Assembly: GCF_036946585.1 (NCBI RefSeq)
Contig: NZ_JAQIIV010000013.1
Location: 27,492-91,491, forward strand
Length of the DNA stretch: 64,000 nucleotides
Source: Pedobacter terrae
GTDB lineage: Bacteria; Bacteroidota; Bacteroidia; Sphingobacteriales; Sphingobacteriaceae
Direction of reading: 5' to 3'
In this document: one piece after another, positions 56,965 to 59,290 of the stretch
Layout: every line of letters begins with the position of its first letter
Position numbering within the stretch: the stretch's first letter is position 1
The notes under the pieces: generated by a model
What the model was told of the DNA's origin: nothing
Databases searched by the model: none
Seen by the model: the letters and a program-made list of their open reading frames with translations, nothing else
Made by a program: the position numbers and the translations under genes

Positions 56965-59290
56965 GGTCGTCATTGCGAGGCACGAAGCAATCTTAATGCG
57001 CTCGCTATTCTTCCCCTAGCTCGGGCTTACCTCGGCTCACCGCCGCCGAGGGGCTTTTACCTTTTTCTTGATAAAAAGGTAACCAAAAATCAAGGCTTGC
57101 ATCGTTTTTTATGTGATCATGTTGTTTTTATTGGTGTAAAAGATTGCTACGCAATTCCTTGTAAAAAGCTACGGAAATCTTTATTGCGGCAGCATCAAGG
57201 CTCTTACCCTAGCTTTATTCCACCGCTCCCGCTTTGATCCTGCCTTGGGTTGTGGGGTAATGAGGGGGAACTGCAAAGATTTCCGTGCTTTTTCCGGCGG
57301 AAATCTGCGAGGCCAGATAGCAGGGTGCAGATAGCGTGGAGCATAAACATTATGCGTGGATCGATTCCTTTGGAACTATGAGGGGAACTCCCCTCCTGAT
57401 TTAGGAGGGGTGGGGGTGGTTATGAAGAGAATTCTCTTTTAGTCCTTTCCCTTTCAGGGGAAAGGTGCCGATAGGCGGATAGGGGTTTAAGGCGCTCGCT
57501 ATTCTTCCCCTAGCTCGGGCTTGCCTCGGCTCACCGCCGCCGAGGGACTCTTACCTTTTTCTTGATAAAAAGGTAACCAAAAATCAAGGCTTGGATCTGA
57601 TGTCGGATAAATTCGTCAAAGCTTTGAGGTCGTCAGCACAAGCCCCGATGAAGGATCGGGGAGGGCGTGCTGCCTCTGGGCAGTGATAAGTTGAAAGGAG
57701 GTGCAAAAGCTTTAACGTTTTCTCCTTCCATCATATCCTAGGCCGGTAGTAGGGTGCGGATAGCATGATGGCTGGTGATAGTTTCTAATATGGTTGTCGT
57801 TCTTCAATCAATAAATCCGTCATTCCCGCGCATGCGGGAATCTTAAAGCGGTTGCTATGCTTTGCCCTAGGCACTGTCTTGCCTCGGTTAGCCACCGAGG
57901 GGCTCTTACCTTTTTCTTGATAAAAAGGTAACCAAAAATCAAGGCTTGCATCGTTTTTTATGTGATCATGTTGTTTTTATTGGTATAAAAGATTGCTACG
58001 CAATTCCTTGTAAAAAGCTACGGAAATCTTTATGGCGGCAGCATCAAGGCTCTTACCCTAGCTTTATTCCACCGCTCCCGCTTTGATCCTGCCTTGGGTT
58101 GTGGGGTAATGAGGGGGAACTGCAAAGATTTCCGTGCTTTTTCTGGCGGAAATCTGCGAGGCCAGATAGCAGGGTGCAGATAGCGTGGTGCATAAATAGC
58201 ATTTATGTATTGATTCTATAAAACTACGAGGGGAACTCCCCTCCTGATTTAGGAGGGGTGGGGGTGGTTATGAAGAGAATTCTCTTTTAGTCCTTTCCCT
58301 TTCAGGGGAAAGGTGCCGATAGGCGGATAGGGGTTTAAGGCGCTCGATATTCTTCCCCTAGCTCGGGCTTGCCTCGGTTAGCCACCGAAGGGCTCTTACC
58401 TTTTTCTTGATAAAAAGGTAACCAAAAATCAAGGCTTGCATCCTTCCTTGTAAAAAGCTACGGAAATCTTTATTGCGGCAGTATCAAGGCTCTTACCCTA
58501 GCTTTATTCCACCGCTCCCGCTTTGATCCTGCCTTGGGTTGTGGGGTAATGAGGGGGAACTGCAAAGATTTCCGTGCTTTTTCCGGCGGAAATCTGCGAG
58601 GCCGGTAGCAGGGTGCAGATCGCATGGTGTATTAGGATAGTTTCTAATAGGGCGTTGTTTCACCGATAAATCCGTCATCTCGACCGCAGTGGAGAGATCT
58701 TTGAACTTTTCATAAACAGAGCCCGTCATTGCCGCGCATGCGGGAATCTTAAAGCGGTTGCTATGCTTTGCCCTAGGCACTGTCTTGCCCCGGTTAGCCA
58801 CGGAAGGGCTCTTTCTTTTCTCTTGATAGAAAAGAAACAAACCTGAGCGAAGCGAAAGCATGCCTACCATTGAAAACAACAACAAACAAGGCATAACTGA
58901 AAGGCTTGCATCGTTTTTTATGTGATCATGTTGTTTTTATTGGTATAAAAGATTGCTACGCAATTCCTTTTAAAAAGCTACGGAAATCTTTGTTGCGGCA
59001 GCATCGAGGCTCTTAGCCCTTGCTTTGTTCCACCGCGCTCGCCTTGACCCTGCCTTGGCCTGTGGGGTTATGAGGAGGGGTGCAAATATTTCCGTGCTTT
59101 TTCCGGCGGAAATCTGCGAGGCCGGTAGCAGGGTGCAGATAGCGTGGGGTAGACAGCGTGGTGCATAAATAGCATTTATGTATTGATTCTATAAAACTAC
59201 GAGGGGAACTCCCCTCCTAATTTAGGAGGGGCAGGGGGTGGTTATGGAGAGTATTATAAAGATCCTTTGCTTCGCTACTATTGAAAGCTC
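56965..59290 (+). repeat. Right mosaic repeat array: 5 copies of the long element plus REPs, same orientation as the left array
   Basis: Copies at ~57000-57344, 57490-57770 (variant core), 57845-58192, 58340-58630, 58750-59150; CTCCCCTCCT..TTTAGGAGGGG palindromes at ~57390, 58237, 59209. Confidence 0.93.

Follow-up and report, generated by a model that had tools for sequence, protein, structure and literature searches.

Covariance modelling places copy 7, the divergent repeat unit in the 64,000-nt stretch of Pedobacter terrae DNA analysed here (the window), in a second major ("alt") subfamily of a large structured repeat family, and indicates that the alt and standard subfamilies are distant homologues. 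We link the two subfamilies because they combine homology with compensatory evolution. The first-pass annotation had described a single copy with an unrelated core, and both parts of that description need revision. The core is a highly diverged homologue, since a covariance model built from alt cores alone finds the standard copies, and the alt type is no singular variant but is co-dominant with the standard one across the genus. The repeat is probably a selfish structured module that has been amplified in arrays and has occasionally spread as IS110-MITE cargo.

The repeats of the window lie in two arrays (Table 1), and copy 7 sits between the first two standard cores of array B. Each unit is laid out as an upstream GC hairpin and U tract, a U/A hairpin with a predicted pseudoknot, the module, and a heptamer-like tail. 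On the + strand, hairpin 1 and its T-rich run look like a terminator. The pseudoknot is predicted from the loop of hairpin 2, CTTGAT, which is complementary to ATCAAG at 57583-57588; the two segments change in concert from family to family (CUUGAU/AUCAAG, GGCAU/AUGCC, CUUGG/CCAAG). The module is a long irregular hairpin of about 160-175 nt closed by GGCUU/AGGCC. Its outer stem is interrupted and leads through an inner helix to a variable apical domain, and the 3' side carries a G/A-rich bulge. Of the two optional modules, insA recurs at 42958, 43310, 57952 and 58912, and insB joins either core type in other genomes.

Table 1. Positions of the repeat arrays, their cores and the parts of copy 7 within the window
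Feature	Position	Strand	Basis or remark
Array A, five standard cores	42645..44578	+	Model R1 matches and module map
Array A, individual cores	42645-42817, 42998-43169, 43350-43521, 43979-44151, 44405-44578	+	
Array B, four standard cores and copy 7	57144..59125	+	Model R1 matches and module map
Array B, individual standard cores	57144-57316, 57993-58165, 58431-58605, 58953-59125	+	
Optional 52-nt module insA, between hairpin 2 and core	57103..57154	+	
Optional 66-nt module insB	42585, 44345, 58841		
Hairpin 1 (GCCTCGG...CCGAGGG), then T-rich run	57523..57546	+	Sequence read; common to all units (families D6, D7)
Hairpin 2 (TTACCTTTTT / AAAAAGGTAA)	57551..57588	+	Sequence read
Copy-7 (alt) core	57586..57746	+	Covariance model bounds, 186.6 bits, E 1e-44
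Copy 7 tail, ~7-nt periodic GCA-rich units (TAGTAGGGTGCGGATAGCATGATGG), then GATAGTTTCTAATATGG	57747..57793	+	Sequence read; compared with solo and mini ends
REP-type hairpin GTCATTCCCGCGCATGCGGGAATC between units	57819..57842	+	~45 copies genome-wide

Copy 7 had been reported to keep the 5' hairpins, AAAATCAAGGCTTG and the tail of its neighbors, and re-reading of the sequence agrees. Its GC hairpin (57523-57546), its U/A hairpin (57551-57576) and the AAAATCAAGGCTTG that follows are common to the neighboring units, its 3' AGGCCGG tail is theirs, and its 111-nt 5' block matches the preceding copy's at 95% identity (family D7). The type-specific part of the core, 57593-57738, does differ from the other nine cores, as was also first noted: it has no blastn match of at least 40 nt to a standard core. 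The sole trace of the standard type within it is a match of ~72% to the standard 3' half, reached via a second copy on contig C22. That second copy-7-type core of the same genome (C22:46201-46346) is 94% identical and again adjoins a standard copy. Across the two types, the 3' halves of the cores are 72-75% identical. A closing helix (GGC/GCC) and an interrupted ~30-bp outer stem form the base of the copy-7 core; above them come the inner helix (CAGCAC/GTGCTG) and, at the apex, the hairpin CCCCGAT/ATCGGGG, with a purine-rich bulge on the 3' side.

The model built from alt cores alone recovers each of the nine standard copies over its full length, with E from 5e-12 to 0.04 where background matches score 0.2 or worse, and also finds types 3-6 in other genomes. 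It aligns over positions 1-160 with identical boundaries and on the + strand only, in keeping with the original observation that copy 7 presents its parts in the same order as the other nine copies. The outer stem and inner helix proposed at first sight are present both in single-sequence folds and in a consensus fold of 32 copy-7-type cores from at least 12 genomes; folded by itself, the copy 7 core gives z = -2.81. Covariation within the alt type was assessed on a MAFFT alignment that had been fitted to no structure. In it, 95.5% of cells pair, against at most 53% with partners slid, and eight pairs show two-sided changes; none of 500 shuffles attains any of these measures. When all types are placed in a model-fitted alignment, 28 of the 40 pairs carry two-sided compensatory changes, sliding the partners lowers the share of paired cells from 91% to 50% or less, and the covariation score is 0.322 compared with 0.116 for shuffled alignments. 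Compensatory changes are far commoner between types than within the alt type, but they occur at both levels, and the claim that shape is held while sequence shifts therefore stands. Conserved unpaired motifs (UGCAAA, UUGGG..GUGG, GAUAAA) also recur in the cores.

The diversity of the family is much larger than the window alone displays. Further core types were sought by flank-anchored blast, a loose regular expression having returned mostly noise, and at least five types were found beyond standard and alt, together with a hybrid and a mini type of ~70 nt. In total, hundreds of copies across the genus fall into seven or more covarying subfamilies. Exchange is greatest in the apical domain, where standard cores have approximately 45 nt in place of the 17-nt hairpin of alt cores, and a hybrid at L145:1088-1249 joins a standard-like outer stem to a copy-7-like apex. 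These findings support the proposed constant scaffold with an exchangeable internal domain. The alt type is abundant in other Pedobacter species, mixed with the standard type, as in the mixed arrays of genomes G005, G026 and G011. Arrays are co-oriented and mosaic, are interleaved with REP hairpins, and occupy a few syntenic intergenic regions (a PorP gene with a giant protein, NhaA with a 439-aa gene, and an RND efflux locus). Their flanks are homogenised more than their cores, and their composition varies between close species. In every mapped copy, the alt core keeps the same position between an upstream module (hp5 or insB) and the tail.

Copies outside the arrays suggest how the repeat moves. 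Two solo copies (C26 and C15) are missing from the orthologous spacers of at least 10 relatives; judged from these spacers and from their junctions, solo copies are recent lineage-specific insertions inside REP hairpin loops. The REP target hairpin has the sequence GTCATYCTGAGCGNAGCGAAGRATC. The C15 copy splits such a hairpin with AG on both sides (CTG AG|...GGT AG|CGCAGCG, in genome G000), and the empty site in two other genomes (G005 and G010) is an intact REP. Cargo elements have a left end of the form GGATAATTTAT..AAATCAATAT.., a right end ..TCAATGGTAG and an AG core dinucleotide, which match those of two autonomous IS110-family elements in relatives, also located inside REP loops. One of these (L260) spans 1,583 bp with a 341-aa ORF, and the other (L276) spans ~1.59 kb with a 438-aa ORF behind a 244-nt 5' non-coding region; both ORFs contain DEDD_Tnp_IS110 (PF01548) and Transposase_20 (PF02371). 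Among the mini type, which has 12 blast matches in the genome, 10 of 11 aligned copies have common left and right ends. Their left junction reads ...CTGAG|GGATAA... in most copies and mostly abuts the REP left arm, and at about half of their 3' junctions a REP right arm is recognisable after ...TCAATGGTAG. Solo copy L142, a standard core, has both IS110-type ends, and L144, an alt core, begins at the left end, after a REP arm. The mini type and the solos C15, L142 and L144 thus carry the ends of the autonomous element, which is what marks an IS110-derived MITE, and insertion is site-specific, with a 2-nt core common to element and target and without terminal inverted repeats. A classical MITE was considered and rejected: terminal inverted repeats are lacking, and the AG is a recombination core rather than a clear duplication. 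The only inverted repeats are subterminal and 6-8 bp long (TGACGT/ACGTCA, ATTGACAG/CTGTCAAT). Also rejected was the idea that hp5 and the core form part of the IS110 element L254 in genome G012, the single case of such a pair close to a transposase; there they lie outside the element bounds, and the element targets a GGGG/CCCC hairpin module.

The arrays are a different matter. Of the 254 distinct alt and standard cores, 248 lack any recognisable IS110-type end within 330 nt, and these comprise copy 7 along with all the other array units of the window. Each array tail is followed only by a degenerate LE-like GATAGTTTCTAATATGG, and the one after the copy 7 tail resembles, by eye alone, the left end of IS110-type elements. 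What array units have in common with the solo element is confined to its positions 59-398. Since array units lack ends and match the solo element only in part, hitch-hiking is demonstrated for solo and mini copies but not for arrays. Searches for an IS110-family transposase gave no match in the window's own genome (92% complete) or in four repeat-rich genomes (G009, G011, G013 and G015). The persistence of arrays at the same loci across many species could alternatively reflect a host function.

We infer the following course of events for a selfish module. The recombinase and bridge RNA of IS110-type elements would mobilise cargo elements in trans, and tandem duplication, unequal exchange or gene conversion would enlarge the arrays. 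The fold would be kept for its benefit to the element, either as a small RNA like the Ssr9 of MITEPpu9 or as a structure for maintenance, and no host function of the fold would be required. Because the solo copies are recent DNA-level insertions, selection may act on the element's own propagation. Conserved shape had initially been taken as strong evidence that the repeats are functional. That conclusion was overstated, as the family is restricted to one genus with few exceptions, has a patchy distribution there and varies in copy number.

The most serious alternative, though an unlikely one, is that the units are host-beneficial genes for trans-acting small RNAs, present in multiple copies like the Qrr or FopS paralogues, with standard and alt as distinct paralogues and mobility as an incidental feature. 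Strong compensatory evolution, conserved unpaired motifs and the recurrence of arrays at the same syntenic loci in many species all agree with such genes, yet the distribution of the family does not. The family is almost confined to Pedobacter and patchy within it: 8 of 151 family genomes and 2 of 37 genera have a match, about half of the same-genus genomes have no copy, the number per genome ranges from 0 to >20, and array make-up differs between close species. Transcription evidence falls on both sides. Alt-type contigs occur in at least 10 RNA-labelled runs, and standard-core pieces in one (X25); runs labelled with the species of the window yielded nothing. In run X42, the repeats have a depth of 20-48 where tmRNA has 119, or 17-40% of tmRNA, with tuf barely detected (one 50-nt piece). 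In X25, however, their depth is 16-66, against 4,230 for tuf and near 1e5 for tmRNA, and so reaches ~1% of tuf. Repeat RNA depth is therefore modest and inconsistent between runs, whose contigs carry no direction. The synthetic-community strain behind X25 was considered as Pedobacter sp. Leaf176, and this identification was rejected. Sigma-70-like sites were sought and none was found, the terminator count is no higher than in shuffles, and the canonical Bacteroidota -7 box (TAnnTTTG) is absent from array B and present in array A only inside cores. Paired cells also fail to show the excess of G-U over A-C that would speak for RNA (23 versus 25).

That near-equality is in line with a fold that acts as DNA, as a single-stranded or cruciform hairpin for a recombinase or an HUH (RAYT or IS200-type) enzyme, with the arrays being BIME-like. 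Both strands do fold well, the minus strand (z = -4.91) at least as well as the plus strand, the units are interleaved with REP hairpins, and 8 of the 11 repeat-rich relatives have strong Y1-transposase genes, which are scarce in relatives without repeats. We nevertheless regard a DNA-level role as improbable. The junctions, with their AG core, split REP loop and DEDD-transposase element ends, fit IS110 rather than HUH chemistry, the core lies in mid-element and not at the ends, and the association of Y1 genes with repeats may merely mirror clade membership. A RAYT is also doubtful as mobiliser: Y1 genes are present, but the one inspected, the RAYT-like gene of the window's genome, is flanked by a different REP palindrome, GTTCCGTAGGAAC.

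It is also very improbable that the core is itself a bridge-RNA-like guide of an IS110-type recombinase, with subfamilies that represent reprogrammed target and donor loops. In cargo elements the unit does sit immediately behind the left end, where an IS110 element has its 5' non-coding (bridge RNA) region, and the units resemble what is reported of bridge RNAs in size (~240 nt with the 5' hairpins) and in multi-loop hairpin architecture. But the matches of the cores to the REP target and the RE-LE donor junction stay at chance 6-mers, with no complementary stretch reaching 7 nt, and their putative guide positions are predicted to be paired rather than looped. The non-coding region of the autonomous element L276 has a target-like CCCTGAGC and a donor-like ATGGTAGTAAT, both of which the cores lack, and a search of 25 IS110 loci with model R1 found nothing (best E = 1). 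A related and speculative thought, which we would back only as a long shot, is that the cores represent a novel class among IS110-associated RNAs, in which the scaffold is constant and the apex can be swapped. An RNA of this sort could modulate the bridge-RNA recombinase or its REP targets, whether as regulator, decoy or co-factor, with arrays as multi-copy expression platforms and types as functionally distinct "alleles". Finally, the notion that copy 7 is a chimera, in which an unrelated palindromic repeat replaced a standard core and the likeness is coincidental, draws on the missing blastn match and on the mosaicism of near-identical flanks around different cores, but is scarcely credible given that the alt-only model aligns helix by helix to standard cores, that 28 of 40 pairs are compensated, that the 3' halves are similar, that intermediate and hybrid types exist, and that the mapped alt cores always hold one position.

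Searches of databases and of the neighborhood are mostly negative. Rfam 15 has no match in the window at gathering score; at E thresholds, array B gives only chance matches with E above 2, and six solo or mini loci give nothing even at E 1 to 10. No tRNA or tmRNA was found in the window. The repeat has no match in the phage sequences searched, and plasmid matches are limited to two other Bacteroidota, where they cover 41-51 nt of hairpin 2. A protein-coding reading was set aside: some units are overlapped by minus-strand ORFs of 93-133 aa, but the copies differ by indels. A dedicated neighbor protein was looked for and rejected: the recurrent neighbors are housekeeping genes (PorP, NhaA, RND efflux, HxlR, Sua5), and mini-type copies adjoin unrelated genes.

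A selfish, occasionally mobilised module may be relevant in several ways. First, the family is an uncatalogued, richly covarying group of structured elements in Bacteroidota, for which a clean model could be deposited and probed. Second, REP hairpins within elements would be landing sites for further insertions, which suggests a possible route by which mosaic intergenic arrays are built. Finally, if the cores interact with the recombinase system, they would bear on the natural control of bridge-recombinase activity.

It is useful to set the family beside known systems. BOX elements of Streptococcus pneumoniae and BIMEs of E. coli are likewise intergenic mosaic repeats of a few recombining modules with stable predicted structure; BIMEs are interleaved with REP-type hairpins, and the function of both is largely unknown. 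By comparison, the Pedobacter modules are longer (cores of 160-175 nt), their subfamilies have diverged deeply with compensatory changes, and their arrays are co-oriented head-to-tail with a documented link to IS110-type ends. Flavo-1 and other Bacteroidota motifs in Rfam 15 are also multi-copy, sometimes tandem, and structured, whereas the arrays, solo copies and mini elements described here match no Rfam family. Like the IS110 bridge RNA and the IS1111 seekRNA (PMC11187229), the unit is a candidate structured RNA of ~150-250 nt by the left end of a DEDD-recombinase element, and REP hairpins are the targets of the host elements, which use a 2-nt core. Unlike them, the core has no target or donor complementarity and no adjacent recombinase gene, and it is unmatched in IS110 non-coding regions.

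By analogy, the nearest published parallel is ISPpu9 and its MITEPpu9-ssr9 derivative. ISPpu9, an IS110-family element of Pseudomonas putida KT2440, inserts in REPs by recombining AG with AG; MITEPpu9 carries the sRNA gene ssr9, of which isolated and tandem copies are known, and its authors read it as a hitch-hiking selfish gene (PMC12288879). The Pedobacter cargo differs in that it is a far larger family, whose hundreds of copies fall into at least seven covarying subfamilies and mostly lie in long mosaic arrays without recognisable IS ends. While Ssr9 is complementary to Asr9, the Pedobacter cores resemble the IS non-coding region neither in sequence nor by model, and their host phylum is Bacteroidota, where mobilisation is predicted from sequence. 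The likenesses are nonetheless extensive. In both systems a REP-targeting IS110 element recombines AG with AG, a short non-autonomous element has the same end boxes and a structured cargo, and isolated copies elsewhere in the genome accompany tandem duplicates (in some strains, for MITEPpu9). Overall, our analysis suggests that the idea of an sRNA gene hitch-hiking on a bridge-RNA recombinase may extend to another phylum, with a larger and more diverse cargo.

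The core of copy 7, the alt core, is a strongly diverged homologue of the standard cores in the other nine copies. The first-pass annotation had called it unrelated. Its observation that copy 7 keeps the 5′ hairpins and tail while 57593-57738 differs was exact; copy 7 and the copy before it share 95% identity in the 5′ block (repeat family D7), and thus the flanks are homogenised while the core differs. R1, a covariance model built only from 32 alt cores and searched with filters off, scores copy 7 at 186.6 bits and also matches all nine standard copies on the + strand, spanning model positions 1-160 in every one and with boundaries as expected (E = 4.6e-12 to 0.038; best background, copy 7's own reverse strand set aside, E = 0.22). 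In the R1 alignment, alt and standard cores have common unpaired strings (UUGGG..GUGG..UGAA..UGCAAA) and compensated helices, for instance alt AAAGCUUU/AAAGCUUU corresponding to standard AAAUCUUU/AAAGAUUU; their 3′ halves are 72-75% identical by blastn. Homology follows from these end-to-end matches, common strings, compensated helices and 3′-half identity. The alignment to all nine standard copies rules out both an unrelated sequence and a chimera with an unrelated palindromic repeat.

Parts of copy 7, core types and related loci (G000, the window's own genome; C, its contigs; other G, relatives; L, extracted loci)
Feature	Location	Details
Copy 7 unit	57490-57770	layout as the first-pass annotation described
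Copy 7 GC hairpin (hairpin 1)	57523-57546	followed by T-rich run
Copy 7 U/A hairpin (hairpin 2)	57551-57576	loop CTTGAT complementary to ATCAAG at 57583-57588
Copy 7 string 5′ of core		AAGGCTTG, directly precedes 57593-57738
Copy 7 type-specific core	57593-57738	146 nt; blastn cannot align it with the other nine cores
Copy 7 3′ part		AGGCCGG, then GCA-rich tail
Hairpin 2 homologues compared	window 57551-57588; G000 C22:42365; C1:203727
Core type 3	L109, L145, L061
Core type 4	L033
Core type 5	L034, L038
Core type 6	L037
Hybrid core	L145:1088-1249	outer stem standard-like, apical hairpin alt-like
Mini core	G000, ~12 occurrences	~70 nt, GGCTGAAAATTTTTC...GAAAAATTTGTTAGGCCGG
Syntenic array locus		PorP + giant protein, NhaA, 439-aa gene
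Syntenic array locus		RND efflux
L260	G005 (P. terrae)	1,583 bp; 341-aa ORF
L276	G010	~1.59 kb; 438-aa ORF; left end contains AAATGACGT, right end CATCAATGGTAG

The outer and inner helices named for copy 7 are borne out, in the common order, by single-sequence folds, RNAalifold and the R1 boundaries. Folded alone, its core has z = −2.81, and a standard core z = −2.83. In A1, a MAFFT alignment of the 32 alt cores from at least 12 genomes that was unfitted to structure, RNAalifold recovers the outer stem, inner helix and apical hairpin. With this structure slightly extended, 95.5% of cells are paired, versus at most 53% for slid partners; eight pairs have two-sided changes, and none of 500 shuffles attains any of these values. 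In A3, an alignment of 42 sequences, 91.2% of cells pair (at most 50% slid), two-sided changes occur in 28 of 40 pairs, and the covariation score is 0.322, compared with 0.116 after shuffling and no more than 0.07 with slid partners; these figures lean towards structure because A3 was fitted to the model. The independent support for the fold is therefore the A1 result. Thus the compensatory changes in A1 and A3 uphold the idea that shape is conserved as sequence changes, although the cores are homologous and not unrelated. Conservation of the fold does not establish a host function.

Elsewhere in the unit, the hairpin 2 loop changes in concert with a hexamer downstream of it from one element family to another (CUUGAU/AUCAAG, GGCAU/AUGCC, CUUGG/CCAAG), which supports a putative H-type pseudoknot adjoining the U5/A5 stem. 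Hairpin 2 also has short matches on plasmids of Persicobacter and Aureibacter. The tails (57747-57776 and equivalents) are degenerate ~7-nt repeats, (A/T)GCA(G/T)(G/A)(G/T).

At paired positions G-U/U-G is as frequent as A-C/C-A (23 and 25 cells), and folding of the minus strand gives z = −4.91; we therefore see no strand signal in these measures. The units are evidently transcribed somewhere. Indeed, alt-type sequence occurs in at least 10 RNA-labelled public runs, including rhizosphere, soil, leaf-litter and wastewater metatranscriptomes and a synthetic community, as contigs of 130-270 nt that span hairpin 1 through AGGCCGG and do not carry direction. In run X25 the repeats reach 16-66, versus 4,230 for tuf and near 1e5 for tmRNA; in run X42 they reach 20-48, versus 119 for tmRNA, with tuf barely detected (a single 50-nt piece). 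The yardsticks thus disagree over repeat level between these runs. No Rfam 15 family matches.

Copy 7 is no one-off; the alt type is one of several genus-wide subfamilies. A second alt copy in G000 (5.19 Mb in 30 contigs), C22:46201-46346, is 94% identical to copy 7 and again follows a standard copy. Ten to more than 20 alt copies, often spaced ~450 nt apart, occur in each of G005, G026, G011, G003, G015, G008 and G009. Alt and standard units are intermixed in single co-oriented arrays, with the optional modules insA and insB shuffled among them. Searches anchored on the flanks, as first proposed, found types 3-6 (33-105 bits with R1), the hybrid and the mini core, and the hybrid bears out an exchangeable internal domain, namely the apical one. 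R1 matches 8 of 151 family genomes in 2 of 37 genera; all public relatives that share the repeats bear the name Pedobacter, and roughly half of same-genus genomes have no copy.

The window corresponds to C13:27492-91491 of G000, and its two clusters (array A, 42.3-45.1 kb; array B, 56.9-59.3 kb) are co-oriented. Arrays occupy syntenic loci in many species with differing unit composition; their neighbours are housekeeping genes, among which we saw no dedicated partner protein. Directly 3′ of array A, eighteen tandem 21-nt units (AGTTCAGACGTTGCGGTCGAT-like, 44680-45090) precede a 247-aa gene (45220-45963, minus strand). Besides this gene, the ~12 kb between the arrays (45220-56933) encodes a type I R-M operon made up of hsdR, an HNH-domain gene, hsdM and hsdS, as well as a PIN_8 protein and one of 439 aa without Pfam match. 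In many species arrays adjoin the 439-aa gene; the repeats may therefore once have been continuous here, with the R-M block a later arrival among them. The PorP/SprF gene is separated from array B by an inserted IS4-family transposase (Tnp_DNA_bind + DDE_Tnp_1; 59379-60857); at this position relatives carry additional repeat units together with NhaA.

Two solo standard units, on C26 and C15, were compared with orthologous spacers of relatives. The C26 copy lies between genes for a glyoxalase-family protein and a 94-aa protein. None of the relatives inspected has it, not even one with a 96%-identical neighbour protein; in its place they have a REP hairpin. At the C15 site the REP of G005 and G010 is uninterrupted, tttgtCATTCTGAGCGCAGCGAAGAATCt, and a base-precise comparison gives ...ATTCTG AG|GGATAGTTTATTTTATATAAATCAAT...CTATCAATGGT AG|CGCAGCGAAGAG in G000: a ~430-nt insertion within the REP loop that is flanked by AG at each junction and lacks terminal inverted repeats. 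Its ends are common to 10 of 11 aligned mini copies (left GGATAATTTATGGTATAAAAATCAATATAAATGACG, right AACGTCAATGGTAG); most mini copies abut a REP left arm, and the right arm is recognisable at about half of 3′ junctions. At REP arms, such a left end likewise precedes one alt unit (L144) and one standard unit (L142). Many of the ~38 G000 elements with this left end are ~200-nt MITEs carrying other REP hairpins; mosaics could thus plausibly be built up as elements insert into REPs within one another. Far from the arrays, the window has two more IS110-type left ends (family D15), 21878-22014 and 23101-23237 (C13:49432 and 50655; GTGTCATGCTGA|GGATAATTT.TGGTATAAAAATCAATATT). Several copies of another palindrome, GTTCCGTAGGAAC, lie ahead of a RAYT-like Y1 transposase gene at C4:331360-331704; gene and palindrome form a separate REP system in G000.

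Of 254 distinct cores, alt or standard, 248 lack recognisable IS110-type ends, every array unit of the window among them. Array units share only positions 59-398 with the solo element, and a degenerate GATAGTTTCTAATATGG, left-end-like by eye, follows each tail. G000 and some repeat-rich relatives have no IS110 transposase match. Because most array units lack such ends and G000 gives no transposase match, we can only infer that arrays would grow by tandem duplication, unequal exchange or conversion. The core as a bridge RNA was rejected, with no guide complementarity and no R1 match in 25 IS110 loci. The best-supported reading is that the units would be a selfish family of structured modules that multiplies in arrays and at times travels as cargo of IS110-type MITEs.

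L260 and L276, autonomous elements of relatives, have the ends of the C15 and mini copies and lie within REP loops; both ORFs have DEDD_Tnp_IS110 and Transposase_20 domains. Target-like CCCTGAGC and donor-like ATGGTAGTAAT, which a bridge RNA should contain, are both present in the non-coding 5′ region of L276. A different IS110-family element in L254 (G012 C41; ~1251-2620 of the reverse-complemented locus; 358-aa ORF) is inserted in a GGGG/CCCC hairpin module (CTCCCCGCCTAATTTAGGAGGGG). The window arrays contain this module too, at 42305, 57369, 58222 and 59195, and IS110 elements thus target a second kind of repeat module. The one upstream hp5 module with core beside a transposase, in L254, lies outside the element's boundaries and was rejected as part of it.

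ISPpu9 is an IS110-family element that inserts in REPs, AG recombining with AG, and MITEPpu9, a MITE with its end boxes, carries the sRNA gene ssr9, which occurs in isolated and tandem copies and which its authors term a hitch-hiking selfish gene (PMC12288879). The Pedobacter elements resemble this pair in REP insertion, in AG junctions and in an end-sharing MITE with cargo.
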